Of a stretch of 64,000 nucleotides of DNA, positions 9,094 to 46,487 are shown piece by piece. The DNA lies in contig CALNYX010000017.1 in assembly GCA_942490925.1 (NCBI GenBank), positions 1,345,159 through 1,409,158 on the forward strand. The letters are read 5' to 3'. The notes under the pieces are model-generated. The model searched no databases, was not told the DNA's origin, and was given only the letters and a program-made list of their open reading frames with translations. How positions within the stretch are numbered: the stretch's first letter is position 1; the number at the start of each line of letters is the position of its first letter. The translations under genes were made by a program, and so were the position numbers. The stretch comes from an uncultured Chlamydiaceae bacterium (GTDB taxonomy: Bacteria > Chlamydiota > Chlamydiia > Chlamydiales > JAAKFR01).

Positions 9094-9275
9094 GAGCGTG
9101 CCACAAAGGTGGAAACCTTGTCAATAACCCTGTTAGTGGAGTGTCTAAAAACTCGATAGAACTGTTGATAAAATCAGAAGGTGTCAATAACTCACTATTT
9201 ATGTACGCTTGTTGAACAGACCGTGAACAACAAATAAACATAGAGGAATTGGCCGTGTTATCAACATTTCCACAC
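9094..9275. other. Candidate chromosomal replication origin / DnaA-box cluster
   Basis: Five 9-mers lie within 1 mismatch of TTWTNCACA: rc-TGTCAATAA at 9119-9127 and 9182-9190, rc-TGTTGATAA at 9163-9171, TTATCAACA at 9258-9266, and ATTTCCACA at 9266-9274. The cluster sits in the thyX-hemB divergent spacer. Confidence 0.35.
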
Positions 9276-12469: not shown

Positions 12470-13807
12470 TCAGAAACCCATTTCTTTGGAATAACGATGA
12501 AGGCCTTGCTTCACAATCTCTACCATTTCAATCTTGGAGGGGCAGATGAATGTGGGGAGCGCGAAGTCTTCCGGGGCAACCTCTAAAAGCCCGAGCTGCT
12601 CGGCAAGCTCATAATCTTCGGCTAAAATTGCCTTCACGAGATGCATGGTTGGGATGCGCATGGGCATCACTTTGTTGTAAATTGCGCCATCAATAAAAGC
12701 ACGCTCTTCACCGTGCTGGTTTGTTGTAAAGCGGATCTTTTTGGATGTAAAGAGGCTTGACACATAAGCTCGTGTTGCCGAAAACTTGCCAAACCCAATG
12801 CGCAGAAAGTGAAACATTTGACGCTTGGTGTTCACAGGAATCACCGAAAAAGCTGTGTGGTAAAAGCCTAAAAACTCCCGCTCTTCAATCTTGCTTCCGG
12901 TTAGTGGGTCGCCGGAAATAAATGTAAGGAGCTGCTGAGTGAGGCGGCCAGCTGAAAGCCCTTCAAAAGAGTGGCCCGCCCGACCGCTGTAAAAGCCCGG
13001 CTTGCTAACGCCGTCTCCCCCTAGGCCAATAATGCGCTTGGTAAAGTAGCGCCCCTCTTTAACCATCATGCCAACTGTAATCACATCTACAACCGAAAGG
13101 GTCCATACGACCTCTTCGTGGTTTTGAATCGGTGAAATTTTGTGAATGTGAAGCGAAGCGCTCCCAATTGGGTTTGGGCCACGAGCTGTATGTTTCTCAA
13201 CTCCTTGGGCCGAGAGAAATGCATCGCAGTCACTTTTCTCGTTGTAGACAAGATGTGTTGGAGCAAGGGTTGCCAAGGCTTCTAGGCCCGCCTGAAAATG
13301 CGACTCGTTTCCAGATACTTGCATTTCTGCAGGAGGAACAAAGGGTTGTGATTCAATTGCTTTTACAAAGATCGCCCTCGGCTTTTTGTGTGGGGAGGCG
13401 ACAAGGTCAAATGGCCGCATCCGAATGTGAGGAAAAAGTCCACGCTCCATAAAAAAAGTGAGCAGGTCTTCTTTGGAGCTTCCTTTGTAGGGGGTCGCTG
13501 GTTCGCTCTGCTCGCTATCTGCAACATCGATAACAATGTCAAGAAGCCTTCTTTTAAGGCCGCGACGGATTTCGGCAACGGTGCCGCCGGCGGGTGAAAC
13601 AAAACGCTGCCCCGCAATTGTTTTGCTTTCAACAAGCGGTTGTCCAATGTTTACAGAATCGCCAACACGAACAAGCACTTTAAATCGAATGTCGTCAAAT
13701 GGGTCAAGGTTAAGCGCTAGCTGTTTGGGCTTGGGAAGGGGCTGGACATCCCCGCTTGGACTGTTGCCCATGGGAAGCGAAAGGCCTTTTTTTGTGCGAA
13801 TTCTCAT
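12470..13807 (-). CDS. nqrA: Na+-translocating NADH:quinone oxidoreductase subunit A
   Basis: 445 aa. The N-terminus MRIRTKKGLSLPMGNSPSG and the overall length are typical of NqrA. It neighbours hemB as I recall for Chlamydiaceae. Confidence 0.85.
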   Translation of the reverse strand: MRIRTKKGLSLPMGNSPSGDVQPLPKPKQLALNLDPFDDIRFKVLVRVGDSVNIGQPLVESKTIAGQRFVSPAGGTVAEIRRGLKRRLLDIVIDVADSEQSEPATPYKGSSKEDLLTFFMERGLFPHIRMRPFDLVASPHKKPRAIFVKAIESQPFVPPAEMQVSGNESHFQAGLEALATLAPTHLVYNEKSDCDAFLSAQGVEKHTARGPNPIGSASLHIHKISPIQNHEEVVWTLSVVDVITVGMMVKEGRYFTKRIIGLGGDGVSKPGFYSGRAGHSFEGLSAGRLTQQLLTFISGDPLTGSKIEEREFLGFYHTAFSVIPVNTKRQMFHFLRIGFGKFSATRAYVSSLFTSKKIRFTTNQHGEERAFIDGAIYNKVMPMRIPTMHLVKAILAEDYELAEQLGLLEVAPEDFALPTFICPSKIEMVEIVKQGLHRYSKEMGF

Positions 13808-30346: not shown

Positions 30347-31342
30347 GTGATAATTTATTTTACAACGATTGTTGTGAAAAAATTCTTTACCATTCTTCTT
30401 CTTTTTTGCGGCACTATTCTAAAGGCTGATTGTTGCGACGATCGTGGTTACTTCCAGTTTTCTGGCGAATGGCTCTACTTTATCCCCTCTTTTGATCAAT
30501 CGGAATATATTGTTAAAGGTGGAGTTGGCTCAGACTCTACTGGTCTGACTGAGCGCCTCGGTGTTGATCAATCATTTGCTTCTGGCTATCGCCTCGAGGG
30601 CGTCTACTTACTTTGCAATCGGCAAAATGCTTTTGCCTTTCGCTATACACAATTCCATGATGTCCCTAAAAGTTCAGTTGGAAGCTCAGCCAACGACTTA
30701 TTACCGATTATCGGAATTCCTGGTCTAATTTCAAATCAAGGAGCATCAGGAAATGCATTGTTTCAAAGAGATTATAACTACTATTCGATAGAAGGACTCT
30801 ATAGGCTCTGCTGCTTAGAAGCCTGTTGTACGCAGACAAAATTACTCATTGGAGTTGAGTACAATCACCTCCATATCAAAGAAGAGGGGCGGTTTCCTGG
30901 ACAAACTAACTTCGTCGTGGATAACGACATGCAAGCCTTCCAGCTCGGACCAGAGTTTGCTCTTGAAGCCTGTTGGGATTTCTCTGACTGTTTGAGCCTT
31001 CTTGGGCGCGCTCAAGGATCGATCTTTTCCACGTGGAACCGCTCAAAATTGACGAGTTCGAGTCAAAATGCCGTACTGCTCATCAAAAATAAACCGAATT
31101 TTTGGCACGTAACACCCGCTTGGGGTGCACGTCTTGGCCTCTCAGCGGACCACTTGATCACTTTACCTCGTTGTTGGGGAGCGTGCGGCTTTCATATTGA
31201 AGCTGGCTACGAATGGTACCTTGCGATGGACGCTGTTGATCGGATCTATTTTGTTGATAGTAGCGCCAGCGGATTTTCCCTCAATGAGTGGTCGAACTTC
31301 ACCCTTCAGGGACCTTATGTCCGCATAAACCTATCTTTCTAA
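30347..31342 (+). CDS. Cysteine-rich putative outer-membrane beta-barrel protein
   Basis: Signal-like N-terminus (KKFFTILLLFCGTILKA) and about 12 Cys, including CC doublets (DCCDD, LCCLEACC). Beta-strand-like alternation is seen, and the protein ends in YVRINLSF (terminal Phe). The start within the first 10 codons is uncertain. Confidence 0.55.
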   Translation: MIIYFTTIVVKKFFTILLLFCGTILKADCCDDRGYFQFSGEWLYFIPSFDQSEYIVKGGVGSDSTGLTERLGVDQSFASGYRLEGVYLLCNRQNAFAFRYTQFHDVPKSSVGSSANDLLPIIGIPGLISNQGASGNALFQRDYNYYSIEGLYRLCCLEACCTQTKLLIGVEYNHLHIKEEGRFPGQTNFVVDNDMQAFQLGPEFALEACWDFSDCLSLLGRAQGSIFSTWNRSKLTSSSQNAVLLIKNKPNFWHVTPAWGARLGLSADHLITLPRCWGACGFHIEAGYEWYLAMDAVDRIYFVDSSASGFSLNEWSNFTLQGPYVRINLSF

Positions 31343-33406: not shown

Positions 33407-34270
33407 TCAGATGGCTAGAGCATTCATTTTATTGAGTAATAGGCAGCGAAGGTGATTTTCAACACTCTGACTATCAGATCTTTTTGAAAATAACCTAGAG
33501 CCAAAGAGCCTTTTCATTCTTGAGAAGGCTGATTCAACAAGAGCTCTTCGGCTATATCCCGTCATTTTACTCCACAAAGATTTAGCAACTTGATCCCCAC
33601 CTAATGCTCGGATGATGCGCAATGCATCATCCCGATCTGGATCTTTGTTTCGTATTCGACCATTCTTGGGTGGAGGGATGAGCCCTCGAGCACCTCTTTT
33701 TGTAATAGCCTCTCTAGAAGCTCTTCCATCATATGCACCATCAGCCAAAACAGTATCTACAGAATCACTCACTTGGCTGAGGAGAACCTCAGTCATTTGA
33801 CCATCGTGTACATGCCCTTGAGTTGTTGTTTGAGCTACAATTTCCCCAGTATCCGTATCGACTGCTATATGGATTTTTACCCATCGCCGTCGTTTTGACT
33901 TTCCATGAATTTTAACCTTCCATTCTCCCTCCCCATAGACTTTAACTCCAGAAGCATCGATAGCAACAACAGAAGCATTTGACTGGCTTAAAGCAGGGAG
34001 CTTCAATTTTCTAGCTCTCTTGCATATCAATGAGTAAGAAGGAATGGAATATTTTGTAAATGACTCAGCAAAGCCTTGCAGAGCCCTATAAGCCAAATGG
34101 TAATGAATCTTGACCATCATAAGCATGGTAATCAAAGAATCGGAGAAAATCTGAGGTCTGCCACCAGTTTTAGACTTTTTGTTTTTGAACAACTTAGGGT
34201 CGATGAGAAAAGTAATGCTTCCCCTTTGAACTAGCTGTTTGTTATATTGCTTCCAATTGCGTTTACGCAT
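33407..34270 (-). CDS. DDE transposase (IS4/IS5 type)
   Basis: 287 aa with an N-terminal MRKRNWKQYNKQLVQRGS. Catalytic-region blocks are AIDASGVKV, LADGAYD and ESAFSRMKRLFG. Confidence 0.85.
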   Translation of the reverse strand: MRKRNWKQYNKQLVQRGSITFLIDPKLFKNKKSKTGGRPQIFSDSLITMLMMVKIHYHLAYRALQGFAESFTKYSIPSYSLICKRARKLKLPALSQSNASVVAIDASGVKVYGEGEWKVKIHGKSKRRRWVKIHIAVDTDTGEIVAQTTTQGHVHDGQMTEVLLSQVSDSVDTVLADGAYDGRASREAITKRGARGLIPPPKNGRIRNKDPDRDDALRIIRALGGDQVAKSLWSKMTGYSRRALVESAFSRMKRLFGSRLFSKRSDSQSVENHLRCLLLNKMNALAI

Positions 34271-34383: not shown

Positions 34384-34412
34384 AGCAAGCTGAGGCAAAG
34401 CCTCAGCTTGCT
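34384..34412. repeat. GGC-NNN-GCC hairpin (member 3, 13-bp perfect stem)
   Basis: AGCAAGCTGAGGC-aaa-GCCTCAGCTTGCT. Confidence 0.7.
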
Positions 34413-34421
34413 ACCTGAAAG

Positions 34422-34444
34422 AAGCAGCGGCGGAGCCGCTGCTT
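34422..34444. repeat. GGC-NNN-GCC hairpin (member 4, 10-bp perfect stem)
   Basis: AAGCAGCGGC-gga-GCCGCTGCTT followed by TT; it could act as a weak + strand terminator. Confidence 0.65.
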
Positions 34445-34549: not shown

Positions 34550-36445
34550 ATGTTTAAAGTTAATTATTTAGATGATATAGTCCCTCAAGTTAATTGTTCA
34601 GATGATACAGTTCCTCTTCTCTGTCCAGATGCTCAAAGAAGTGCTCAAGCAGAGAGTGTAACTTCTGTTTACGAACGCCATGTTCTAAGAAAGCTCTCTG
34701 GACATCAGAAGCCAATTATCAGTTGCTTAAAGATTAATGATGAAAGGGTAATGACCAGTTCAGGCGATGGCACTGTGCGCGTGTGGGACCTGAAAGGTCA
34801 TGAACCACCTACTATTCTGCGCATCAAGCAGGGGTGCCTTTTGTGGGCGCAGCTTCATGATGGTAGAATCCTTTCTTCAACCCCTTGTAGAAAACAACTC
34901 CATTGGTGGTCAATTGAGCCTTTTGAGCTGCAAAAGAGTTATGGGACCTTCGGGGCAGTAAGCGCAGCGATTGAGTTGACTGTTTTCCCAAATAGCGTTG
35001 CCTATGGGACTGAAATGGGAAAAATTGTCATTTTAAATTACGAAAGAGGGTGTGCACTAAAGGTTATTGATCAGGCTCACAAAGGACCAATTAATTGCCT
35101 CTACCAGCTTAGTGGCCATCAACTTCTTTCATCTGCGCGTGATGATAAGACTATCCATTGGGACATGAATGATTTTACACAGCTTTCAAAAAAAGGGGGG
35201 GTAGAGACGTTGTGTTGCCTAGAGATAAATGGATGCATCGTAACAGGTGGGAGTGATGATACTTTGCGTAGCGGCGATACAGTTGTTCAAAGCAATGATC
35301 GAATCTATGCTCTTCGAAAAATTGATGAGCGTTATTTTGCCTCAGCCTCAAATACTTCTAGAGTCCAAGTGTGGGATTTCCAGACGCTTGAACAAGTTGC
35401 CTGTTTAAAAGGGCATATTGGTACAGTATGTGGAGTTTTTAGCGTGAGCAATGGCTCAATTGCTTCATTTGGGTATGATGATCCCTTACTATATGTTTGG
35501 TCAGCGGCAAGTCAAGTTGACCCTTCCGGCTATGTTCTCCCTGAAAGTGATGCCAAAATAGCAGCGGTCATCACAAGTGGAGAACTTTTTCAAAATTTCT
35601 CATATGTTCAGTTGCTAGCCGGGGATAATGTAAAGCAGATTGTCAGTATAAACGCCCATCGAATGATTTGCTGTCTCAAATCAGGAGGATTTTGCTTTCT
35701 AGAAAGTCAAGGGGTGAGCAAGGTTTATTTAGGTGATAACACGATTCTACTCTCACCTTGGGATGATCAGCAAGCCGTAATTGGATTGGATGGGAAAGTC
35801 CTGGCTATATGGAACTTTGCACAGAAGAAGGCAGTACATCGTACTGTAGGGCCTAAGGAGAAAAGCATCAGTTGTGTTTTGCCTGTCAGTTCTGAAAACA
35901 TTGCTTTTGGCTGCACAGATGGAAGTGTTTGGGTTTGGAATCTCAATTCACAGAACTGCAGATTACTGAAAAAAAATCAACACGCAGGACCTGTAAGAAA
36001 ATTAGTGCTGGGGCTAAATGGGGCATTTATGTCTGTTGGAGAAGATAAGACCCTCTATTGGAGTCTAGGAAATGATCCTAAGGAGAAAACGGAGTGTTAT
36101 GCACTCTGTTTACCAAGTGGGAATGTGATCTACCGCCCTGAAAAATCAATGCTACTTTTTACAGCTCTTGGCCAGGCTTTACATACATTTAGTTACAAGG
36201 GAGGCGCTGTCGTAAAAGCGATTCCGCTTGCTGGTAGTGATAAGCTTTTTGCAACAGCTTCAGAAGATGGAACGATCTGTATTTGGAATATTGAAAAGAG
36301 AAATCCCCTGGCAACGCTGAGAGGGAATAATACTTTCCTCTCAGACCTTGTTCAAAGGTCTGATGGTTGCCTGATCGCTTGTGGTAATAAGGGAGTCGAT
36401 AGATTCACTTTTGCTCTTCCAAAGAAGAAGAGCTGGTTCAAATAA
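34550..36445 (+). CDS. WD40/beta-propeller repeat protein (eukaryote-like)
   Basis: 631 aa with recurrent WD-type units (GHQKPIISCL...SSGDGTVRVWDL; HKGPINCLYQL...SSARDDKTIHWDM; GHIGTVCGVF...; ASEDGTICIWNI). Confidence 0.8.
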   Translation: MFKVNYLDDIVPQVNCSDDTVPLLCPDAQRSAQAESVTSVYERHVLRKLSGHQKPIISCLKINDERVMTSSGDGTVRVWDLKGHEPPTILRIKQGCLLWAQLHDGRILSSTPCRKQLHWWSIEPFELQKSYGTFGAVSAAIELTVFPNSVAYGTEMGKIVILNYERGCALKVIDQAHKGPINCLYQLSGHQLLSSARDDKTIHWDMNDFTQLSKKGGVETLCCLEINGCIVTGGSDDTLRSGDTVVQSNDRIYALRKIDERYFASASNTSRVQVWDFQTLEQVACLKGHIGTVCGVFSVSNGSIASFGYDDPLLYVWSAASQVDPSGYVLPESDAKIAAVITSGELFQNFSYVQLLAGDNVKQIVSINAHRMICCLKSGGFCFLESQGVSKVYLGDNTILLSPWDDQQAVIGLDGKVLAIWNFAQKKAVHRTVGPKEKSISCVLPVSSENIAFGCTDGSVWVWNLNSQNCRLLKKNQHAGPVRKLVLGLNGAFMSVGEDKTLYWSLGNDPKEKTECYALCLPSGNVIYRPEKSMLLFTALGQALHTFSYKGGAVVKAIPLAGSDKLFATASEDGTICIWNIEKRNPLATLRGNNTFLSDLVQRSDGCLIACGNKGVDRFTFALPKKKSWFK

Positions 36446-36514
36446 GCGCGATAAACTTTTCCTGCATACCAGGATCGACTCAAGACACATAAAATTTGAA
36501 ATACAGGGTTTGCT

Positions 36515-38365
36515 GTGCTACAGTCAATCCCTATGAATGAAAAGCTCAAACGGATTTATCGAGAAGCATACGATGTTGTTATCCCCGACCTTGACTACTA
36601 TCTAAGGCAAATCGATTGTCGCGACGGTTGCCCTGTAAACACTGACGGTCGTGGCTACATGCTGGCTATTCACTCTGGAAATCTGTTGGAGGGATACAAA
36701 ATTGCACGCGGTCCCAATCCCTTTGCTTCGATCTGCGGCATCATTTGTGGTGCTCCTTGTGAAATTGCATGCCGGCGCGATCGTGTCGATAAAACTCTGA
36801 CGATCCGCGCGCAGAAGCGCTATCTAGATGAGTGGTTTGGGCTCGATAAACAGGCGCATATCAAATCACTAGAATTTAGCTATGCGCGCGGCTCTACAAC
36901 ACCAAAGTCAAATGGTTTGAAAGTCGCATGTGTCGGCGCCGGGGTTGCGTCACTCACTTGTGCACATGACTTATTACGTTTGGGCTACGCTGTTGATGTT
37001 TATGAACAGATGCCGTTGCCAGGCGGCTTACTTGTCTACGGAGTGCCGAACTATCGGTTGAAAAATGAGGTCGCGATCAATGAGTGCGCAGCGATTGAGC
37101 ATTTGGGAGCCAGGATTCACTACAATACGAAAGTTGGGCGAGATATCACACTTAGTGAACTTGAAAAGCAATACGATACGATATTTATCGGTAATGGGCT
37201 GTGGAAATCTCGAGAGTTACCAATCCCAGATTTTGAAGCACCAGATATCATTCGTGGTGTCGAATATCTACGGCTACTTTGCGCAGAGCAGAAGTGGAAG
37301 ATAGGGGAACAAGTTATCGTTGTTGGCGGGGGAAACGTCGCATTTGATGTCGCCCGCTCTTCTGTCCGCAATGGAGCTAAACATGTGACGATGGTTTGCT
37401 TGGAGGCGCGCGATGAACAGACTGCTGATGAATTTGAAATCGAAGATGGGATGGAAGAGGGCGTTGCGATTGTCAACCGTGTCGGCCCTGTCTCTGTTGA
37501 GCGCGATGGGAGTGGAAAGATCATTGGGATCAAACTGCAACGAGTTCACTCGCTATTTGATGCAGATGGACGGTTTGCTCCCGACTTCATTGCCGAAACA
37601 GAGTTTGTCATCCCCTGTGATACGATAGCGCTTGCCATTGGCCAGGGGATGGACATGAGTCTGTTTGATGGGTGGGAGCGAAAAAACGAATTTGTCCTTG
37701 AGCGAGGTGTCATCAAAACAGAGAGAGAAACAGGGCGTACTTCAATCAAAGGGATTTATGCAGGCGGAGATGGGGCTTTTGGTCCAGCACTTTTCATCGA
37801 TGCTGTGCGTCACGGTCAGAACTCAGCAAGAGCAATTGATGCAGACTTGCGCGGCACACGTCCCTACCAGGAATTTGTTGGTGAGTTTACAACTGTGCCA
37901 CCGATGCGCGATAAGGCCTACTTGCGTACAAGTTGGTCTTTGCCAACAATGCAACCGGTTGAAAAACGGAAGCACTCTTTGCAACTGGTCGAAAACAACT
38001 ACACAGACGAAGAGGTGCATCAACAATCCAATCGCTGCCTTCAGTGTCACATCTCTCCAGTGTTTGATGGCTCTTTATGCATCAAGTGCAATGGGTGTGT
38101 CGATGTCTGTCCTACCAATTGTTTAAAGCAGGTTTACATTTCCCAGATGAATTTGGATTTGGGTGAAGGGAATATGCGTAAAGCTGTTGATAATCACTAT
38201 GGAGTTGATTCAGCGAGTATGAGTGATGAGGAGTTGAACCAGCTTGGCTCAGCGATGTTGAAGGATGAAGACCTTTGCATTCGGTGTGGGCTGTGCGCAG
38301 AAAAGTGTCCGACGCAAGCTGTGACGATGGATCTGATGAATTATTCGTTCAGATGGATCGGGTAA
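36515..38365 (+). CDS. GltD-like NAD(P)H-dependent FAD/Fe-S oxidoreductase with C-terminal 2x[4Fe-4S] ferredoxin domain
   Basis: N-terminal Cys cluster region (CRDGCPVNTD; ICGIICGAPCEIACRR), two dinucleotide folds (VACVGAGVASLTCA...GG; VIVVGGGNVAFDVA) and GIYAGGDGA. The C-terminal motifs are CIKCNGCVDVCPTNC and CIRCGLCAEKCPTQ. The start may be ATG 36533. Confidence 0.8.
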   Translation: MLQSIPMNEKLKRIYREAYDVVIPDLDYYLRQIDCRDGCPVNTDGRGYMLAIHSGNLLEGYKIARGPNPFASICGIICGAPCEIACRRDRVDKTLTIRAQKRYLDEWFGLDKQAHIKSLEFSYARGSTTPKSNGLKVACVGAGVASLTCAHDLLRLGYAVDVYEQMPLPGGLLVYGVPNYRLKNEVAINECAAIEHLGARIHYNTKVGRDITLSELEKQYDTIFIGNGLWKSRELPIPDFEAPDIIRGVEYLRLLCAEQKWKIGEQVIVVGGGNVAFDVARSSVRNGAKHVTMVCLEARDEQTADEFEIEDGMEEGVAIVNRVGPVSVERDGSGKIIGIKLQRVHSLFDADGRFAPDFIAETEFVIPCDTIALAIGQGMDMSLFDGWERKNEFVLERGVIKTERETGRTSIKGIYAGGDGAFGPALFIDAVRHGQNSARAIDADLRGTRPYQEFVGEFTTVPPMRDKAYLRTSWSLPTMQPVEKRKHSLQLVENNYTDEEVHQQSNRCLQCHISPVFDGSLCIKCNGCVDVCPTNCLKQVYISQMNLDLGEGNMRKAVDNHYGVDSASMSDEELNQLGSAMLKDEDLCIRCGLCAEKCPTQAVTMDLMNYSFRWIG

Positions 38366-38426
38366 GGAGTCCTGGAGCATTATTTAGTGACTCCTTAAGA
38401 AACCTCTGAAATTAAATAAAGTTGAG

Positions 38427-38576
38427 TTGAATATCGAGATCTTTTGGTTTATCATATTTTCTTTGATCGGTGGCATCGCCGCACTTGTGGTCTTTCTCTA
38501 CTGTTTGAAGAAAGGACAGTTTGAGGATGTTGAAGAGACCAAGTACCAGGTGTTTCGCGATGATGAGGAGGATTAG
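38427..38576 (+). CDS. CcoS/FixS-like mini membrane protein (unannotated sORF)
   Basis: 49 aa from TTG 38427: NIEIFWFIIFSLIGGIAALVVFLYCLKKGQFEDVEETKYQVFRDDEED. One TM helix is followed by K-x-GQ-F/Y-[DE]-D and an acidic tail, as in CcoS. The stop TAG overlaps the Rieske GTG (TAGTG). Confidence 0.55.
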   Translation: MNIEIFWFIIFSLIGGIAALVVFLYCLKKGQFEDVEETKYQVFRDDEED

Positions 38577-39088
38577 TGCCAAAATATCGAAATAGTCTGC
38601 GCGTTGTTAAAGATACAAAAGAGCCAAAAGTTTCTAGACGTAAGTTTTTAGCGCTCATTGGTTGGGGCGCCGTAGCGGGTGTTGGTGGCATCTTGGCATC
38701 TGCAATGGGAGGCTTTCTCTATCCGAACGCTCTTAAGATTCCCCCAAGTGTTTTTTCCATTGGCAGGCCAGACGATGTTCTCTCTTCTGAAGGGCGCGTA
38801 TTTCTTCCCGGACAGAAAGTTTTTGTTGAAGTTGCTCGTGGTCGTGTGCGTTGTCTCACAGCGATTTGCACACACCTAGGTTGTACTGTGAATGGTGTTG
38901 AAACGGGTTTTAAATGTCCATGTCACGGTTCGACATACGATTTGGATGGAAAAAATACGGGCGGACCAGCTCCAAGCCCGCTTGTCTACTTCCAGGTCTA
39001 CAAAGGGGCCTCAGGAGAATTACTTGTTGATAAAAGTCGCGAAATCCATGTGCCAGCTGAATCATGGTACTCGCCAACTGCTGCGTGA
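38576..39088 (+). CDS. Rieske [2Fe-2S] protein with twin-arginine signal/anchor
   Basis: SRRKFLALIGWGAVAG (Tat motif plus TM) and the cluster boxes CTHLGC and CPCHGS. Confidence 0.9.
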   Translation: MPKYRNSLRVVKDTKEPKVSRRKFLALIGWGAVAGVGGILASAMGGFLYPNALKIPPSVFSIGRPDDVLSSEGRVFLPGQKVFVEVARGRVRCLTAICTHLGCTVNGVETGFKCPCHGSTYDLDGKNTGGPAPSPLVYFQVYKGASGELLVDKSREIHVPAESWYSPTAA

Positions 39089-39093
39089 AAAAG

Positions 39094-40422
39094 ATGGCCT
39101 CATTTAAAGGGAAACCAAAAAAAAGCTTTTGGCAAACACTCGAAACGCTTCCTGCTGATTTTGTGCGTTCGATTTTTCGTCATCGCTATCCAAGCAATGA
39201 TGTCGATCGCTCTGAGATCGTCTTCAAAAACTTTTTCCTCCACATCCATCCAGTCAAGTGTCACAAAACAGCTGTTGATCCTTTTCACACACTCGGACTT
39301 GGCGCCATAACGGCAAGTCTTTTCTTCTTGCTTGTCATCACAGGCGTTGTCTTGATGTTTTTCTACATTCCTGCTGTTGATCGCGCCTACACTATTCTTG
39401 TCGACTGGCTTGACACGACACCATTTGCGATGATGTGGCGCAACATTCATCGATGGAGCGCGCAGTTGATGGTGCTCTTTGTCTTCCTCCACATGAGTCG
39501 CGTCTTTTACATGGGGGCCTATAAGGGAGAGCGGAAATTCAATTGGATGATCGGTGTGATCTTGATGGTCATTACCCTTTTTCTCTCATTCACTGGCTAT
39601 CTTTTACCTTGGGATCAACTCGCTTTTTGGGCCATTACAGTCGGCTCTGAGATTGCGGGTTATGTTCCAGGGATTCCAGGGATGCAGTATAACATCAACA
39701 AACTGATGCTATTGGGGTCGACAACGGTGGGGCAAGATGCATTGATTCGCTTCTACGTTCTGCACGTGATGGTCCTACCCCTTCTTTTAGGAACCTTTTT
39801 AGGGGTCCATTTCTGGAGAATCCGAAAAGATGGAGGGTTAGCTCGTCCTCCAGATCGTTGGCGTCCAGATCCTTATAGAGTTGTGCAACGCTCTGACACC
39901 AAAGAGTCATTTGCCCCTGGTGTCCGTCGAACCTATGGCTTGATGGAGCTTGTCAGGGGTGCAAATCCCACAGTCGACAGAGGACCAGAGAATTACGTCT
40001 TTACCTGGCCAAACTTGCTCAGAGCAGAATTAATGGTCTTTTTGGGCACTGCTGCACTTGTTGTGCTCCTTTCGCTCTTTATTGATGCACCTCTAGAAGA
40101 GATCGCAAACCCTTCTAAACCAACAAATCCTGCAAAAGCACCCTGGTATTTCTTAGGGTTACAAGAGATGGTCTCTTACAATGCTTTTTGGGGAGGTGTG
40201 GGTATTCCGATGTTGATTATCATAGGGTTAGCGCTTATTCCTTATCTTGATCGGAATCCTCAAGGTGAAGGTGTTTGGTTCCACAAGAGCCGCTATTTCG
40301 GTATTTTTCTCTACACAACATTCATGACAATCCAAGGGCTTTTAGTCGTAGTTGGAGTCTTTTTCCGAGGCCCCAACTGGAGTTGGATTTGGCCATGGAC
40401 TGACAATTTTGCGAGGCATTAG
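39094..40422 (+). CDS. Cytochrome b (b6-like, with fused subunit-IV-like C-terminal part)
   Basis: The track ORF starts at 39064; ATG 39094 lies 6 nt after the Rieske stop. The helix B pair is IHRW...x13...LHMS and the helix D pair is LHVM...x14...VHFW (b6-type spacing). The APWYFLGLQE block is present. Confidence 0.9.
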   Translation: MASFKGKPKKSFWQTLETLPADFVRSIFRHRYPSNDVDRSEIVFKNFFLHIHPVKCHKTAVDPFHTLGLGAITASLFFLLVITGVVLMFFYIPAVDRAYTILVDWLDTTPFAMMWRNIHRWSAQLMVLFVFLHMSRVFYMGAYKGERKFNWMIGVILMVITLFLSFTGYLLPWDQLAFWAITVGSEIAGYVPGIPGMQYNINKLMLLGSTTVGQDALIRFYVLHVMVLPLLLGTFLGVHFWRIRKDGGLARPPDRWRPDPYRVVQRSDTKESFAPGVRRTYGLMELVRGANPTVDRGPENYVFTWPNLLRAELMVFLGTAALVVLLSLFIDAPLEEIANPSKPTNPAKAPWYFLGLQEMVSYNAFWGGVGIPMLIIIGLALIPYLDRNPQGEGVWFHKSRYFGIFLYTTFMTIQGLLVVVGVFFRGPNWSWIWPWTDNFARH

Positions 40423-43400
40423 TGCGCTATCAAACAGGTTATCAATACGCTTTGATCTTTTTTGCAGCGCTTGTCGTCTTTTCAATTGGTGTGTTTGTCT
40501 ACAAAGAGCTTTTTCCTGAGTATAAGACCTACCAGTATGCCTATAAAGAGCTTGAGGCACTACGTTCAAAGGTGACTGGAGAAAAACCGGCTCCATTTGC
40601 AACAGGGATTCGTCAGATCATGATTCCTGATCCTGACAATGGCCCTGAAGTGATTGATCGTTGCACGTCGTGTCACGTCGCAATGAACCTCCCTCATTTT
40701 TCTCCAAAGCGTCTGGCGCTTGATGTGAATGACAATCCCATTGTCGATGCTCAAGGTGATCCTGTACTGGAAGCTAACCCGAGTTACATCTGGACAGAGG
40801 TAGGCGAGAAGGCGAAGCATCTAGACACAAAAGAAATGCGCATGGCGCTGATGGCTCACCCGCTGATAGGAGCTGAAACACGACCTTTTGAATACCATTC
40901 AATGGAAGAGTATGGCTGTACAACTTGTCACAGTGGTAATGGACGTGCACTGGTTGCAAAACGTGCTCATGGACCTGTTTTCGACGAAACGTATGAACCG
41001 GCTGACCTGGGCAAGAAGCCGCAATTCTTAGAGATCGATGAGGAGCATGATCCACTTCTTGCGAGGATGTATAACAACAAGCCTGGTCATGATTTGGTCT
41101 TTCAGACAACGCCGCTTTTTGTTGGGCCGCTCATGACAGCAAAGTGTATGCAGTGTCACCAGTCGACTGCATCAGAGATGCAGGCAACGCTTGAGAAGAT
41201 TACAGATTTGGAAGCAAAGAAAAAAGAGCAGGTCGCACTTCTAGAAAAAGGGATTGAAGATGATAAATCAGCGCTAGCTGCATTGACGGATTTACAAGCG
41301 CGTTTGAAGAGTGAGGGATATGCCAAGACAATTGCTTGGTTGCAAGAGCAGCTGGGGGATTTTCGCCTCTCTTCGGAGCAACTCGATGCATACGCTGGGC
41401 AGCTGACATTCATGCAGACGAACAAAGAGAATCCAGATGAAGCGATTGTCAAACAGCTTGACATGCTTGGGAAGCATTCTATTTTGGCAAAAGAGCAGAT
41501 GTTGGCAGAAATTGAGCCAACGCTTGAAATGTTTGATCGAGCAAAGGCTCCTCTTTTTGTTGCAGGTCAAGATAAGCAAGTGGTAAGTAAGATGCGCTCA
41601 CAAGTTGACCGGTTAACGGTGAGCTACCAAAGAGGGCAAGAACTTTTTCTTTCTCAGGCCTGTTATGCTTGCCATCGCATTGCTGGCTTTTCACGCTCGA
41701 GTGTTGGTCCTGAGTTGACAACTGCAGGTTTGAGTTATCCCTGGTTTATCAAAGAGTCGATTGTATGGCCTCAGGCTGATTTGCCCTCTTCAACGATGCC
41801 GAATTTTCATCTCGATCATGAAGAGCTTGGCGATCTGATGGCATTTTTGATGGCACAAACAGGTAATCGCAAGGTGCAATCAGAAGTGGAACATCAAATC
41901 GCGCTCAACCAGTGGGAAGCTGGCGAGAAAATGGCGTGGGAAAAACCCGTTGCTCCGACGCAGATTCATGACTTGCGCGCTGGGATGATGATCTATGCAA
42001 CACAAGGGTGCGCCGCTTGTCACAAGTTGGAAGGGTTTGAATCTAATCTTGCAGTTGAAGATGAGCTCTGGTTCAAAAAGTTGTTTCCTGAACAGATTAC
42101 AGGATCAAAGTTAGCAGCAGTAGTTGAAGCACATGGCAAAGAGATCGAAGCGCAGTTTAAGCAGGTTCGCAAGAATGGGATCTTAGAAGAGATTGAGCTC
42201 GGCTATCCCGGATTGCTTATGGGGTACTACTCTAACTTCAAGTTTGCAGCGCGCAAAGGAAATGAAGACTTATTGAACAAGGTGTTGATGGGTTATATTC
42301 AAGCCTATGGACTTGGTCGTGACATTGCACCAGCGCTTAATTGGTCAGGAGTCTACCGAGATAATGCCTGGCTAATGGGACATTTTCACAATCCAAATGC
42401 TTATACTGCAAAATCGATCATGCCTGTCATGCCATTTGATGATACGAAATTCTACACACTCAACTACATGTTGCATAAGCTAGGGGAAAAAAATCGTGAT
42501 GCATTGCAACAAGTTTGGAAAAAAGATGGATTTGATCCGCCAGCAGCTTATACAGCGCTTTGCTCTTCCTGTCATGGCCCAAATCGCCAAGGAAATGGAC
42601 TTGTCTCTGAGTGGATCTACCCGATCCCTAAAAACCTGAGAGATCCTGTTTTCTTACGCAGTTTGACTAAAGAGCGTGCAATCGATTCGATCTGGCACGG
42701 CGTTTCTGGCACACCGATGCCGCCTTGGGGAGAGACTATCGAAGGGGAACCTGTACTCAACTATGCTCAGATTGTAAAGCTAGTCGACTGGTTGTATCAA
42801 GGATTGCCACCAATGCCGCGGCAAGCAAGTGAAGAAGAGAAGTGGAACTATACTCCAGAGATGGTTGTGCAAGAGATGGAAAAAGAGCGCGAGCTGTTGC
42901 AGCCCTCACACAAACCTGTCGATGTTGCAACCTACTTTGAAGTGCGCCCCAATCCGATTCCTGGCCCAGATAAAGAGCTCTATTTCATCAGAGAGCAGTT
43001 TTATACCCCTGAGAATTTGGAGGAGGGAAGAGAGTACTACGATGTGAACTGCGCAACTTGTCATGGAAAAGATGGTGGAGGAACAGGTTTACGCTCGACA
43101 TCCATGGTTGAAGCAAAACCTCGTATGCTCACCAATTTGCCTTGGATACGTTCACGCGATGATCTCCGTTTACTTCGCTCCATCAAATATGGTGTAGCTG
43201 GCACTGCGATGATCCCTTGGGGAGATCAGACAACCGCGGCTCAACGAATGGAACTGGTGATGTACATTCGAGAGCTGACACGTATGCAAATTCTGCGCGA
43301 TGACTTTGAAGAAGTGATCTATGATGTGTTCGATCGCCGAGAACTCGAACTGAATGAAGCACGCATTCCAAACTATGAAGCACTGGAGAAATTACAAACA

Positions 43401-43853
43401 GCCTATGATCAAGCTGTTTTAGAGGGTGCTCCGCTCACCATGAAAAAAGAGCTAGCTGAAAAGCGAGCAATTGATGCGCGCTACCTAGAAGAGATTGAGC
43501 TTCTTCAGCAAGAGCGTGAAATCTATAGAACACTCGGCTTGCAGCTCATTGGTAAGGAGCTTCCCTCGCCGATTATTGAGAGTTACTTTGAGTTTCTACA
43601 TGAGCGCAAAGGTGAGCCTCTTGCAGTGATTGGCTATCTTGATCAAGTGATCGCGGATTATCAGAAGCAGCTTGATGATCTCACCCAAGGACTCAGTGAT
43701 ATGGAAATTGTCCAGAATAAGCGTGTACAAAAAGTGATTACAGAGCAACGTGGCTACATCAACTTGCGCACGAAGCTAATGATGGGGGTTTCAAACGGTA
43801 AAAGACTGCAGGAAAAACAGCGAGACCTCTATAATGCCCTCCATGATGCATGA
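40422..43853 (+). CDS. Membrane-anchored heptahaem cytochrome c with CcoP-like dihaem module
   Basis: 1143 aa with an N-terminal TM helix. The seven CxxCH motifs start at residues 81, 166, 242, 413, 530, 714 and 877. Domains 6-7 (CSSCHGPNRQGNG...GTPMPPWG; CATCHGKDGGGTG...GTAMIPWG) look like FixP/CcoP. The GTG start overlaps the cyt b stop (TAGTG). Confidence 0.85.
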   Translation: MRYQTGYQYALIFFAALVVFSIGVFVYKELFPEYKTYQYAYKELEALRSKVTGEKPAPFATGIRQIMIPDPDNGPEVIDRCTSCHVAMNLPHFSPKRLALDVNDNPIVDAQGDPVLEANPSYIWTEVGEKAKHLDTKEMRMALMAHPLIGAETRPFEYHSMEEYGCTTCHSGNGRALVAKRAHGPVFDETYEPADLGKKPQFLEIDEEHDPLLARMYNNKPGHDLVFQTTPLFVGPLMTAKCMQCHQSTASEMQATLEKITDLEAKKKEQVALLEKGIEDDKSALAALTDLQARLKSEGYAKTIAWLQEQLGDFRLSSEQLDAYAGQLTFMQTNKENPDEAIVKQLDMLGKHSILAKEQMLAEIEPTLEMFDRAKAPLFVAGQDKQVVSKMRSQVDRLTVSYQRGQELFLSQACYACHRIAGFSRSSVGPELTTAGLSYPWFIKESIVWPQADLPSSTMPNFHLDHEELGDLMAFLMAQTGNRKVQSEVEHQIALNQWEAGEKMAWEKPVAPTQIHDLRAGMMIYATQGCAACHKLEGFESNLAVEDELWFKKLFPEQITGSKLAAVVEAHGKEIEAQFKQVRKNGILEEIELGYPGLLMGYYSNFKFAARKGNEDLLNKVLMGYIQAYGLGRDIAPALNWSGVYRDNAWLMGHFHNPNAYTAKSIMPVMPFDDTKFYTLNYMLHKLGEKNRDALQQVWKKDGFDPPAAYTALCSSCHGPNRQGNGLVSEWIYPIPKNLRDPVFLRSLTKERAIDSIWHGVSGTPMPPWGETIEGEPVLNYAQIVKLVDWLYQGLPPMPRQASEEEKWNYTPEMVVQEMEKERELLQPSHKPVDVATYFEVRPNPIPGPDKELYFIREQFYTPENLEEGREYYDVNCATCHGKDGGGTGLRSTSMVEAKPRMLTNLPWIRSRDDLRLLRSIKYGVAGTAMIPWGDQTTAAQRMELVMYIRELTRMQILRDDFEEVIYDVFDRRELELNEARIPNYEALEKLQTAYDQAVLEGAPLTMKKELAEKRAIDARYLEEIELLQQEREIYRTLGLQLIGKELPSPIIESYFEFLHERKGEPLAVIGYLDQVIADYQKQLDDLTQGLSDMEIVQNKRVQKVITEQRGYINLRTKLMMGVSNGKRLQEKQRDLYNALHDA

Positions 43854-45258
43854 CGATAGACCCGTTAAACAGATGTTGTACCCCGCAGTTCTCTTTTTAC
43901 TCGTTGGGCTGCTCATCGGTATTTTCATTTCTATCAACGGTTTTCTCTTTCCCGATTACTTCTCAGGTGAATATATCCACTTTGGGCGCGTCCGTCCTGT
44001 ACATGTTGGCACAGTCACAATCTTGTGGCTCCTTTCTGCTGATATGGGACTCCTCTACTATTTTGTTCCCCGTCTAGCAGGCACTCCATTATGGAGCTTC
44101 AAGCTCGCTTGCGTCACAACAGTCATCTGGTGGGTAAGCGCTGTGTTGGGTATCTTCTCCTATCCAACAGGTACGAATTTTGGTTGGGAATATGCTGAAT
44201 TCCCCATGACAATTGGGAAGGGACTGATCCCCATCAAACTGCTTATGACAATTGGTTGGGTGCTATTTGCTATTAACATCTTTGCCACCATCATGAAGCG
44301 GAAGCATAAACAGATGTATGTTTCGCTCTGGTATGCTCTTGGAACCCTTATTTGGACCTCTATTACCTTTGTGGTTGGTAACTTTCTCATCTTGCTTGTC
44401 CCCTATGGAATTTCACGGGTTAACACGAGTTTTTTCTATGTTCACAACCTTGTCGGCTTGATTTTTACTCCGATGGGTCTTGCCATTGCCTACTACTTCA
44501 TTCCCAAAATTTCCAAGACACCGATCTACAGTCATCGCTTGTCGATGGTTGGATTTTGGTCGATTGCATTTTTCTATGCCTGGATCGGTGCGCATCATAT
44601 GTTGCATGGACCCGAGTCACAGTGGTTACAAACAACGAGCATTATCTTTTCGATGTGGTTAATCATTCCAGTTTGGACCGTAGTGACCAATTTATTTGGA
44701 ACGGTGAAACGTGGCTGGGAGATGTATAGTAAAAGTGCTCCATTGCGCTTTTTAACCATGGGAGTCGCGTTCTACCTGATCGTCTGTTTGCAAGGCTCTT
44801 TGCAATCGTTGCGCAACGTGAATGAGGTGATCTCAAAAACCGATTGGATCATCGGACATGCTCACATGTCACTACTAGGCACATTCAGCTTTTTTGCAAT
44901 TGGAGGTGTTTACTACGCCATTCCACAAATCACAGGCAAACCCCTTTGGTCTGAGAGGTTGGCTAACTGGCATTTCACTCTTGCACTTACAGGCTCAGTG
45001 CTCATGTTTGTCGTCCTATGGATTGGAGGTTTTCATCAAGGACTCATGTGGGCAAATTGGGGCACAGGGACAACCTACTCACAGTTTCATGAAAATCTTA
45101 GCCGCGTTCCTTTCTTACTTACCGTTGAAAAGATGTGGTGGTGGTGGTTTTGGAGAATGATTGGAGGCGTCATCATTTTCATCGGATGCGCTATATTTGC
45201 TTTCAATATCTTCAATACCATTATCCTTGATCCTCCTTCAGAGGAGGGAGACGCATGA
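43834..45258 (+). CDS. ccoN: cbb3-type (C-family) haem-copper oxidase subunit I
   Basis: 12-TM protein with His ligand contexts RPVHVGT, FFYVHNL, GAHHMLHG and GHAHMSLLG. The start is among ATGs at 43834-43846 and overlaps the cytochrome c stop. Confidence 0.85.
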   Translation: MPSMMHDDRPVKQMLYPAVLFLLVGLLIGIFISINGFLFPDYFSGEYIHFGRVRPVHVGTVTILWLLSADMGLLYYFVPRLAGTPLWSFKLACVTTVIWWVSAVLGIFSYPTGTNFGWEYAEFPMTIGKGLIPIKLLMTIGWVLFAINIFATIMKRKHKQMYVSLWYALGTLIWTSITFVVGNFLILLVPYGISRVNTSFFYVHNLVGLIFTPMGLAIAYYFIPKISKTPIYSHRLSMVGFWSIAFFYAWIGAHHMLHGPESQWLQTTSIIFSMWLIIPVWTVVTNLFGTVKRGWEMYSKSAPLRFLTMGVAFYLIVCLQGSLQSLRNVNEVISKTDWIIGHAHMSLLGTFSFFAIGGVYYAIPQITGKPLWSERLANWHFTLALTGSVLMFVVLWIGGFHQGLMWANWGTGTTYSQFHENLSRVPFLLTVEKMWWWWFWRMIGGVIIFIGCAIFAFNIFNTIILDPPSEEGDA

Positions 45259-46487
45259 AAAAACTTGAATGGTCAGCCATCTGGACAGTCATCGGTGTGA
45301 TCATTCTGTTTGCTTCTGCTATTTTTGTGACCCTATGGGCTCCAAGGCATATCGATCCCAGTTGGCAACAGGCCTCTAGCACTTATCAAGTGCAGATGTA
45401 TGAAGTTTCAGATCCTAACGTCTATATCAGCACCTCGAATCCAGGCGGCTGGGGATTACAATATGTCTATCACTTGCAAAGCGGCCAAACATTGCATGCA
45501 TTTCAAGAGAGTGAAACAGTGCGTATTTTGGCTTCTAAGGAACTTGAGCCTTATGTAACGCGCCTTGGAGATCCCGACTTAAAGTTGACTTCCAAAGTCC
45601 TTTTACTCCGTCAACCCGCTTCACAAGCGGATGAAAAATCTTTTCGCAAAAAGCTGGAAGGTGATTTGCATTACGAAGTTCTTGAGCTCTATGACCCGCA
45701 AAAAGAGCAGGCATTTGCGGTGACTGAAACAGATGGTGTGATTGAAAACTGGGCAGAGGGAAATTTCAAGCTTCTAGGAGCTCAACCCTCCTACTACACA
45801 GAGCATGGTGTCATCTATATCAACAATCCCAAAGAGTATCGCGTCACCAAAACTGTTTTCCAAGGCGACCCTTACTGGCTCTATGATGAGAATGGAGAGC
45901 CGATTACAGATCTGCCTGAATTGAAGGGGGGAAGACAGGGCTTCTTATCTCGCCAAAGCCTCATCAAGATGGGTGAAGACATCTATCGGGTAGAAGGGTG
46001 TTGGTATTGCCATACAGATCAGACGCGCACACTCATTCAAGATACCGTTCTCAATGGAGCTCCAGACTATCCTGCGCCACCTTCTGCAGCCAATGAATAC
46101 ATTTATCAGCGCGTTACATTTCCAGGGACAAGACGGATTGGGCCTGACATTTCTCGTGTTGGGATTAAAAGACCACACAGGGACTGGCACCAATCACATT
46201 TTTGGTCACCCAAATCAGAGAGTAAAGGGAGTGTGATGCCAGCTTTTGGACATTTCTTTGATAATGACCCGACTGGAACAGCGCGTAACCCTTACGGCGT
46301 GCCGAATTACAAGTTTGAGGCAATTTTCCAATATCTGATGACAAAAGGAACGCGCATGTTGCCTCCAACGCAAGCCTGGTGGCTTGGTAAGGATCCAATT
46401 CAGACAATCGACATTATTGAGGGAAAACCTCTAAAAAATGCGCACATGGAATCTAGCATCGATCTTTCCAATAAGGTTCCAAAATGA
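45255..46487 (+). CDS. ccoO: CcoO-like monohaem subunit with approximately 190-aa insertion
   Basis: N-terminal TM helix, then YRVEGCWYCHTDQTR, and RIGPDISRVGIKRPHRDWHQSHFWSPKSESKGSVMPAF (compare the canonical GPDLxRVGxK...W...H...P...S.MP). ATGA overlaps occur at both ends. Confidence 0.8.
   Translation: MKKLEWSAIWTVIGVIILFASAIFVTLWAPRHIDPSWQQASSTYQVQMYEVSDPNVYISTSNPGGWGLQYVYHLQSGQTLHAFQESETVRILASKELEPYVTRLGDPDLKLTSKVLLLRQPASQADEKSFRKKLEGDLHYEVLELYDPQKEQAFAVTETDGVIENWAEGNFKLLGAQPSYYTEHGVIYINNPKEYRVTKTVFQGDPYWLYDENGEPITDLPELKGGRQGFLSRQSLIKMGEDIYRVEGCWYCHTDQTRTLIQDTVLNGAPDYPAPPSAANEYIYQRVTFPGTRRIGPDISRVGIKRPHRDWHQSHFWSPKSESKGSVMPAFGHFFDNDPTGTARNPYGVPNYKFEAIFQYLMTKGTRMLPPTQAWWLGKDPIQTIDIIEGKPLKNAHMESSIDLSNKVPK

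Follow-up and report, generated by a model that had tools for sequence, protein, structure and literature searches.

The stretch of DNA analyzed here, hereafter the window, comprises 64,000 nucleotides (nt) of contig CALNYX010000017.1 from an uncultured Chlamydiaceae bacterium (assembly GCA_942490925.1, positions 1,345,159 to 1,409,158 of the forward strand). On the forward strand of the window, positions 36515-38365 encode a GltD/NfnB-like iron-sulfur flavoprotein with a C-terminal 2x[4Fe-4S] ferredoxin domain, denoted here as GltD-Fdx, which was assigned on the basis of Pfam, NCBIfam, AlphaFold2, Foldseek, and the N-termini of homologs. The gene stands at the head of a cluster encoding a Rieske protein, cytochrome b, and a cbb3-type oxidase. 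We describe this locus, the distribution of the pairing of flavoprotein and Rieske/cytochrome b genes, and the function that these observations suggest.

Translation of the window yields an open reading frame (ORF) of 616 amino acids (aa) for GltD-Fdx. However, its homologs are 608-613 aa long and begin with M-[SD]-E-K-L, suggesting that the true start is probably ATG 36533 (610 aa) rather than GTG 36515. A promoter-like TTGAAA-17-TACAGT site is found at 36496-36524 and would fall just ahead of ATG 36533. Pfam assigns residues 34-108 to Fer4_20, the Fe-S domain of GltD and DPD type, and residues 136-434 to Pyr_redox_2, and recovers two Fer4 motifs, CIKCNGCVDVCP (aa 522-533) and CIRCGLCAEKCP (aa 588-599), which are separated by an insert of about 55 aa. 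Among NCBIfam models, the full-length PRK12771 (‘NAD(P)-binding protein’) scores highest, at 385 bits and under its cutoff of 516. The AlphaFold2 model, for which 60 family members were used, is confident, with a predicted local distance difference test (pLDDT) of 93.5 and a predicted template modeling (pTM) score of 0.91, and it contains no transmembrane segment. Foldseek places the model closest, over its full length, to NfnB-like modules, namely 9bov_A (NfnABC), 8oh5_C (StnABC), and 9n5u_A (Thermococcus NfnABC), followed by NfnI, NfnB, Xfn, GltD, and DPD. The match to 9bov_A spans query residues 35-602, 4ylf_B and 5jca_L rank after 8oh5_C and 9n5u_A, and E values range from 1e-47 to 6e-35 for 9bov_A, 8oh5_C, 9n5u_A, and 4ylf_B. 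A sequence search of the PDB returned matches in the same order. The GltD-like architecture with an extra dicluster ferredoxin tail, as originally described by the first-pass annotation for the 616-aa product, is thus borne out by Pfam, AlphaFold2, and Foldseek alike.

Cofactor sites were evaluated as invariant columns among 60-61 aligned family members. Putative N-terminal Fe-S ligands comprise CRDGCP (aa 35-40) and CGIICGAPCEIAC (aa 74-86) with the invariant Glu83 (36617-36772, +), where C39, C78, C82, E83, and C86 are invariant columns. The dinucleotide-binding motif for flavin adenine dinucleotide (FAD) is GAGVAS (aa 141-146; 36935-36952, +), in which G141 and G143 are invariant and which lies within matches to Pyr_redox_2 and NAD_binding_8. 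Toward the C-terminus, an invariant RCLQC (aa 507-511) is followed by the dicluster ferredoxin domain (38033-38311, +), and this region aligns colinearly with a Kuenenia-type protein that is described below. Collectively, the invariant cysteines suffice for four clusters, tentatively grouped as C35/C39 with C508/C511, C74/C78/C82/C86 with E83, and the two CxxCxxCxxxCP motifs.

The NAD(P)-binding Rossmann motif GGGNVA (aa 271-276) is followed by V-C-L-E-A-R (aa 294-299) at the alignment columns where a YRR motif is found in other flavoproteins (37325-37411, +). The YRR of NfnB and DsrL-2 binds the 2'-phosphate of NADP(H), and DsrL enzymes without YRR use NAD(H) (PMC7596348). The window protein and 47 of the 61 aligned members carry C-L-E at this position. 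The longer form C-L-E-[SA]-R (37394-37411 in the window) is found in most members, including all chlamydial ones, and Y-R-R is found in the Kuenenia-type protein and a basal subgroup. Since C-L-E replaces the NADP-specifying YRR, the window flavoprotein is predicted to use NAD(H) rather than NADP(H).

Downstream of the flavoprotein gene are six genes on the same strand that overlap by 1-25 nt. The first encodes a CcoS/FixS-like cbb3 maturation protein of 49 aa with a TTG start (38427-38576, +; PF03597, E 2.5e-10; TIGR00847, 29.9 bits against a cutoff of 28.35). It is followed by the Rieske [2Fe-2S] subunit (38576-39088, +), identified through profile matches, with a Tat-like N-terminus (RRKFL) and the cluster-binding boxes CTHLGC and CPCHGSTY. 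Its best solved relatives are the Kuenenia proteins Kustd1480 (9rk3, E 3e-18) and Kuste4569 (9rk4, E 4e-16), ahead of all b6f and bc1 Rieske proteins. The next gene encodes a fused cytochrome b6/subunit IV-like protein with similarity to ExtP and ExtQ (39064-40422, +), with an APWY motif at the quinol oxidation (Qo) site (aa 359-362), His60 within N-F-F-L-H, and TLGLG without the heme ci cysteine. Because the cytochrome b of relatives is 442 aa long, its start is probably ATG 39094. The cluster continues with a membrane-anchored cytochrome c of 1143 aa (40422-43853, +), for which profile matches and a motif count indicate seven CxxCH motifs and a CcoP-like C-terminal domain. It ends with CcoN, the catalytic subunit of a cbb3-type oxidase (43834-45258, +; PF00115, E 9.6e-85; TIGR00780, 275.8 bits and under its cutoff of 583.15), and a CcoO-like monoheme subunit of 410 aa with a long N-terminal extension and one CxxCH at aa 249 (45255-46487, +; PF02433, E 7e-22). 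The placement of the flavoprotein gene at the head of a Rieske/cytochrome b cluster with an attached oxidase is therefore as first proposed. A separate ccoP gene is absent from the cluster, and the CcoO-like protein is about twice the usual length. The CcoP-like heptaheme cytochrome c and the long CcoO suggest a hard-wired supercomplex of Rieske/cytochrome b and cbb3 oxidase.

The only gap in the cluster is the spacer between the flavoprotein gene and ccoS (38366-38426), and its length of 61 nt agrees with that noted in the first pass. An 8-bp inverted repeat without a following T-run had been placed at 38365-38397. The repeat exists and lacks the T-run, but the stated start was one base off (38364-38396) and the repeat extends to 9 bp (38363-38397, +; arms 38363-38371 and 38389-38397), forming a potential stem-loop that includes the TAA stop codon. 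The 101 nt around it fold with -27.1 kcal/mol (z = -3.07 relative to shuffled sequences), and the repeat sequence is present once in the window. Perfect 9-bp inverted repeats are modestly enriched across the window, with 24 k-mer hits at about 14 places compared to 8.8 +/- 4.5 in Markov simulations. A terminator scan near the stop codon returned only a weak 5-bp stem (38358-38375), and no Rfam match was found for the hairpin region. In four other chlamydial loci the spacer is absent: the two genes overlap at TAGTG (L086) or TGATG (L002), are separated by 4 nt (L047), or overlap at the 3' end of the flavoprotein gene (L080). The loss of the spacer in these relatives and the lack of an Rfam family lead us to reject a conserved regulatory element, and the suggested role of the hairpin in processing or attenuation is not supported. 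We read it as a small lineage-specific insertion that would act, at most, as an mRNA-stabilizing stem-loop. The overlap of the flavoprotein gene and ccoS in relatives in turn argues for co-transcription of the two.

To evaluate how commonly the flavoprotein is associated with Rieske/cytochrome b genes, the family alignment was scanned against one genome per species, which yielded 80 loci whose six-frame ORFs were annotated by phmmer with the window proteins as queries. Members of these genome loci belonged to the Acidobacteriota (the majority), Ignavibacteriota, Verrucomicrobiota, Planctomycetia, Victivallales (Lentisphaerae), Bacteroidota, Zixibacteria, Chloroflexota, Calditrichota, Kryptoniota, Eisenbacteria, Nitrospirota, a deltaproteobacterium, Armatimonadota, Waddliaceae, and Chlamydiales. 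Rieske and/or cytochrome b genes adjoin the flavoprotein gene in 73 of the 80 loci, spanning at least 12 phyla. The remaining seven comprise two contig-truncated pieces of the same cluster, three uninformative contig ends, and two apparent exceptions (L021 and L044). The commonest gene order is flavoprotein-Rieske-cytochrome b-cytochrome c. The order in the Chloroflexota is flavoprotein-cytochrome b-cytochrome b-Rieske, and that in the Blastocatellia, Holophagae, and Thermoanaerobaculia is ccoS-Rieske-cytochrome b-cytochrome c-ccoN-ccoO-flavoprotein. The order of the window, with ccoS and cbb3 genes, recurs in the Ignavibacteriota and in one metagenome-assembled genome (MAG) of the Acidobacteriota (L004-L006).

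The converse survey, a scan of metagenomes with the window cytochrome b, recovered 80 loci, all with APWY. The flavoprotein gene was identified in 57 of these; 18 of the others are too truncated to evaluate, which amounts to 57 of 62 informative loci. In 10 of 11 chlamydia-like metagenome loci and in L002, L047, L080, and L086, GltD-Fdx, ccoS, Rieske, and cytochrome b follow one another in this order. Locus L090 (1-6332) encodes a chlamydia-like ccoS-Rieske-cytochrome b-cytochrome c-ccoN array, upstream of which are genes for three unrelated, apparently secreted proteins and no flavoprotein gene. Collectively, these surveys indicate that the partnership of the flavoprotein with Rieske/cytochrome b is strong but not obligatory in cis. 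Co-occurrence of the GltD-like subfamily with Rieske/cytochrome b genes, which the first-pass annotation had put forward as a check, was thus detected from both sides. Its expectation that such a pairing would be unusual in another lineage of the Planctomycetes-Verrucomicrobia-Chlamydiae (PVC) group does not hold, as the pairing is the rule across at least 12 phyla. Likewise, attachment to an oxidase is not a local peculiarity, since the same layout is found in the Ignavibacteriota and in several classes of Acidobacteriota.

The window flavoprotein shares 75-86% identity with more than 120 protein clusters, all named ones being chlamydial (MAGs of Chlamydiales, Parachlamydiaceae, and Protochlamydia), and these merge into one representative at 50% clustering. 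The next relatives share 34-46% identity, are about 600-650 aa long, and retain both ferredoxin motifs. For the flavoprotein and cytochrome b alike, the nearest non-chlamydial relatives are from oxidase-linked clusters of Ignavibacteriota and Acidobacteriota and from Verrucomicrobiota. Pairwise distance matrices of flavoprotein and cytochrome b are strongly correlated across 73 loci (r = 0.87, Mantel p about 0.001), indicating that the two have co-evolved. In a neighbor-joining tree of 232 sequences, which was constructed without bootstraps and of which only coarse groupings are used here, the linked flavoproteins and the Kuenenia-type protein form one clade of 172 sequences, with relatives that are 650-700 aa or more than 1000 aa long falling outside it.

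The Rieske and cytochrome b proteins linked to this flavoprotein have distinctive signatures. The serine of C-x-C-H-G-S, which is a signature of high potential, followed by x-F or x-Y, is present in 144 of 145 linked Rieske proteins, and the CPCHGSTY of the window contains both redox-tuning residues, Ser and Tyr. These residues are hydrogen-bond donors that go with the high potentials measured for two Kuenenia Rieske proteins of this type, +303 and +335 mV (PMC12954380), and the Rieske center of the window may be of the same high-potential (>+300 mV) type. Essentially all linked cytochromes b, including that of the window, have APWY at the Qo site instead of PEWY or PDWY. In the available portion of the study that described it, the APWY clade is described as polyphyletic, uncharacterized, spread by transfer, associated with mid- to high-potential Rieske proteins, and possibly operating in reverse, and it is listed for the cultured Blastopirellula marina and Solibacter usitatus; no mention of a flavoprotein partner or of Chlamydiae was found in that portion (Kao and Hunte, 2014). 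The N-terminal motif N-x-x-L-H (39229-39303 in the window) is invariant among APWY-type cytochromes b. Its histidine, His60 in the window, aligns with His62 of Kustd1481, a proposed ligand of an extra interfacial heme b in Kuenenia models (PMC12954380), and is invariant in 73 of 73 linked cytochromes b and absent from a canonical cytochrome b in L045.

Other features surround the cluster. Upstream of the flavoprotein gene are an insertion sequence (IS) transposase (DDE_Tnp_1; 33407-34270, -) and a WD40-repeat protein of 631 aa (34550-36445), and perfect inverted repeats (34384-34412 and 34422-34444) flank the IS side. In a syntenic chlamydial contig of 2.4 Mb (L002), uvrB directly precedes the flavoprotein gene, such that the IS and the WD40 gene are inserted in the window relative to that contig. 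A Logan contig that encodes an identical flavoprotein sequence (L001) shows the WD40 gene in three fragments and splits the cytochrome c and cytochrome b genes in another way than the window does, which points to assembly errors or to frameshifts in a strain that is nearly identical. The window also encodes NqrA, subunit A of the Na+-translocating NADH:quinone reductase (12470-13807, minus strand), and HemB (9249-10319). The presence of nqrA indicates that a conventional NADH:quinone route exists in the organism, at least in part. Further features of the window are TopA/SWI and GreA fusion proteins of chlamydial type and a Cys-rich ORF of 331 aa (30347-31342), which has a hydrophobic N-terminus and resembles an outer-membrane protein of chlamydiae.

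Considering the domain architecture, the homology relationships, the conserved linkage, the co-evolution with cytochrome b, and the signatures of the linked proteins, we suggest, with somewhat better than even confidence, that the gene product is the cytoplasmic partner of an APWY-type Rieske/cytochrome b complex, namely an iron-sulfur flavoprotein that binds NAD(H) and is homologous to Kuste4570 and Kustd1483, the putative NAD(P) reductase subunits of anammox bacteria. In the proposed mechanism, FAD would exchange hydride with NAD(H), and four Fe-S clusters, divided evenly between the GltD-type N-terminal domain and the C-terminal ferredoxin domain, would serve as a wire. This wire would reach the cytoplasmic (n) side of cytochrome b, where the flavoprotein may dock, possibly via an extra heme held by His60 of both cytochrome b monomers. 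Menaquinol would be oxidized at Qo, with one electron passing to the Rieske protein, the heptaheme cytochrome c, the cbb3 oxidase, and O2, and the other being driven through the b hemes and the Fe-S wire to NAD+. The net result would be a quinol-based electron bifurcation that yields NADH in place of a Q cycle.

The direction of electron flow is the less secure part of this proposal, and we consider transfer from menaquinol to NAD+ to be somewhat short of an even bet. The Acidobacteriota, Ignavibacteriota, Verrucomicrobiota, Chloroflexota, environmental Chlamydiota, and others are probably mainly menaquinone-dependent. Quinol-driven reduction of NAD+ is favored here because of these presumably menaquinone-based phyla, the high-potential Rieske signature, and a Qo site without the usual acidic residue, and the argument is the same as that made for Kuenenia (PMC12954380). 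A broader version of the proposal, to which we attach considerably lower confidence, is that quinol-based bifurcation onto NAD+ is a common mode of complex III in these phyla. The chlamydial version would be wired to cbb3 through the heptaheme CcoP-like cytochrome c, and the low-potential electron would exit as NADH rather than re-reduce quinone. On its return by Na+-NQR or complex I, it would add a coupling loop that harvests the large span from menaquinol to O2.

Several observations weigh against the proposed partnership or its direction. Among genome loci, a Capsulimonadaceae chromosome (L021) has no Rieske or cytochrome b genes within 10 kb on either side of the flavoprotein gene, and L044 has none in the 1.1 kb of its downstream flank. 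Among metagenome loci, L090, L154, L155, L165, and L166 are informative and do not encode the flavoprotein. His60 is also retained in unlinked APWY cytochromes b and is therefore a marker of the APWY clade rather than proof of docking. The heme ci cysteine (CxGG; WCMGG), which forms part of the Kuenenia model, is replaced by Gly in the window (TLGLG); among the 73 linked and aligned cytochromes b, it is found only in the Kuenenia-type L084 and in L072, and it also occurs in the unlinked L154, L165, and L166. The anammox complexes are themselves known only through genomics, proteomics, and AlphaFold3 models (PMC12954380). On our own estimate, reduction of NAD+ against the membrane potential is energetically marginal. 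Because the window encodes NqrA, NADH formed from quinol would be re-oxidized, which is sensible only as an energy-conserving loop or for redox balancing. Finally, the direction of electron transfer cannot be read from sequence.

This last point bears on the principal alternative, namely that electrons flow in the opposite direction. The flavoprotein would then oxidize NADH and deliver electrons to the n side of cytochrome b, and quinone would be reduced at Qi in a Mitchell-type Q cycle, such that the cluster would by itself encode an NADH:cytochrome c/O2 oxidoreductase. Linkage and homology fit this arrangement equally well, the predicted specificity for NAD(H) suits a catabolic donor, the O2 reductase that closes the cluster provides an aerobic context, and a precedent under discussion is the donation of electrons to the n side of cytochrome b6f by FNR/ferredoxin during cyclic electron flow (PMC7908018). 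However, the energy span from NADH to quinone would be wasted although the window encodes NqrA, and the same objection leads Hauser et al. to reject this direction in Kuenenia (PMC12954380). It would also leave the high-potential Rieske signature and the APWY Qo site unexplained, and we regard it as unlikely, if still a serious contender.

Three further alternatives were weighed. A soluble, free-standing NAD(P)H:ferredoxin or acceptor oxidoreductase like SfrB, DsrL, or Nfn, merely co-transcribed (e.g., for redox balancing) and not docked on cytochrome b, would be consistent with the fold of soluble NfnB-like modules, the lack of a transmembrane segment in the model, names given to homologs (‘ferredoxin--NADP reductase’, ‘NADPH-Fe(3+) oxidoreductase subunit beta’, and ‘formate dehydrogenase beta subunit’), and the finding of some family members and some APWY clusters apart from each other. 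It appears improbable given an adjacency that persists across at least 12 phyla and three gene orders (with insertion between cytochrome b and subunit IV in Kuenenia), the strong co-evolution of flavoprotein and cytochrome b, and the lack of NfnA, DsrAB, a molybdopterin subunit, or GltB beside the flavoprotein gene at the examined loci. Still less probable is a reductase for maturation or assembly of the cbb3 oxidase, similar to the polyferredoxin CcoG: the gene immediately precedes ccoS in both chlamydiae and Ignavibacteriota, and the flavoprotein is also encoded in those clusters of Acidobacteriota that have ccoS, but ccoN is nearby in only about 11 of the 80 genome loci, most members adjoin Rieske, cytochrome b, and cytochrome c genes without an oxidase or ccoS, and the anaerobic Kuenenia-type cluster includes the flavoprotein and no cbb3 genes. 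Least credible of all is a conventional glutamate synthase small subunit (GltD) with GltB encoded elsewhere. Despite the fold and the matches to gltD/gltA models, scores are far under the cutoffs (TIGR01317, 161.2 vs. 447.7; TIGR01318, 198.4 vs. 482.95; TIGR01316, 244 vs. 472), GltD does not have the extra ferredoxin domain, no GltB-sized ORF was found in the window (the longest being the 1143-aa cytochrome), and no gltB was detected beside homologs in the surveyed loci. The score cutoffs, the extra domain, and the Rieske/cytochrome b context effectively refute this assignment.

If the flavoprotein is indeed a partner of Rieske/cytochrome b, the implications extend beyond the window. Reduction of NAD(P)+ by Rieske/cytochrome b has so far been proposed from two gene clusters of slow-growing anammox bacteria. 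The module of flavoprotein, Rieske, and cytochrome b is the norm for the APWY cytochrome b clade in at least 12 phyla, cbb3-wired aerobic versions included, making the question of an NAD(P)+-reducing Rieske/cytochrome b complex approachable in other organisms. No description of the pairing outside of anammox bacteria was found in the searchable literature, which did not cover older reviews, such that a prior mention is possible. Chlamydial studies list PetBD and CcoNO without the flavoprotein gene, and its product would be an unrecognized component of the ‘PetBD + CcoNO’ branch in amoeba-associated chlamydiae that bears on their NADH balance. Current annotations of family members as glutamate synthase beta, ferredoxin-NADP reductase, or formate dehydrogenase beta are, in this light, misleading.

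Comparison with characterized systems places the proposed complex among known electron transfer modules. Domain order is the same in the window protein and DsrL: an N-terminal 2x[4Fe-4S] domain precedes the FAD domain, in which the NAD(P) domain is embedded, and a linker leads to a C-terminal 2x[4Fe-4S] domain for reaching a partner enzyme. The two also share the split between YRR and non-YRR forms that corresponds to NADP(H) and NAD(H) (PMC7596348). In contrast, the partner of DsrL is DsrAB and that of the window protein would be Rieske/cytochrome b; no dsr genes were found in the window or in 160 related loci. NfnB and the NfnB-like modules of NfnABC/StnABC (Bfu-family) transhydrogenases are alike in fold, in the two N-terminal clusters, and in the FAD and NAD(P) sites, and the structural match to NfnABC-type modules includes the ferredoxin extension behind the flavin domains. 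Unlike in those systems, the window has no NfnA- or HydABC-like partner in the neighborhood, no fused molybdopterin-like domain, and CLE rather than YRR, and nothing points to a second exit from the flavin as would be needed for flavin-based bifurcation. Cytochrome b6f with bound FNR is similar in that a flavoprotein would act on NAD(P)H at the n side of a b6-type complex (PMC7908018), but FNR has an unrelated fold and lacks an Fe-S wire, its binding to the complex is loose and disputed, and its gene does not share an operon with those of the complex. The window cytochrome b and essentially all linked cytochromes b share their APWY motif with the clade described by Kao and Hunte (2014).

The closest likeness is to the anammox complexes of R/b-2 and R/b-3 type. 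The statement, in the first-pass annotation, that some anammox Rieske/cytochrome b clusters carry a GltD-like NAD(P) oxidoreductase agrees with the literature: in AlphaFold3 models of these complexes, four Fe-S clusters run from the cytochrome b dimer to FAD, and the proposed source of NAD(P)H is a bifurcation of electrons at Qo (PMC12954380). A Kuenenia-type kustd1480-85 cluster (L084) was identified with the 9rk3 sequence rebuilt from a PDB alignment; its Rieske protein is 96% identical to 9rk3, and the cluster is thus from a close relative that is not necessarily strain-identical. Its 566-aa flavoprotein is 31% identical to and colinear with that of the window (residues 3-564 and 19-611, respectively; E 3e-89), including RCLxC and both ferredoxin motifs, and the cytochromes b are 47% identical. 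Both systems combine a Rieske protein, a b6-like cytochrome b/subunit IV, and a multiheme cytochrome c in place of cytochrome f or c1 with a cytoplasmic FAD/four-Fe-S flavoprotein, which in the window is a homolog of Kuste4570/Kustd1483. Both have the APWY Qo motif, the conserved histidine proposed as an extra-heme ligand, and a basic residue before the last cysteine (Arg550 of Kustd1483, Lys597 in the window), and the structural neighbors reported for Kuste4570 (9bov/9bp5, 5t5i) are the same.

The two systems also differ in several respects. The window cluster ends in a cbb3 oxidase and includes ccoS, whereas the anammox clusters have HAO-like or unknown sinks. Cytochrome b and subunit IV are fused in the window, and the flavoprotein gene comes first rather than between cytochrome b and subunit IV as in the Kuenenia type. 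The window protein has CLE, which predicts NAD(H), where the Kuenenia protein has YRR, and the heme ci cysteine of Kuenenia is lacking. In the neighbor-joining tree without bootstraps, the chlamydial clade is nearer to oxidase-linked Ignavibacteriota and Acidobacteriota than to Kuenenia and is not the sister of the latter. The locus would therefore represent an oxidase-coupled, predicted NAD(H)-specific, and broadly distributed version, lacking the heme ci cysteine, of a known and still hypothetical complex. Collectively, these comparisons suggest that the NAD(P)-linked version of Rieske/cytochrome b proposed for anammox bacteria is widespread and that, in this chlamydial lineage, it may feed an oxygen reductase.

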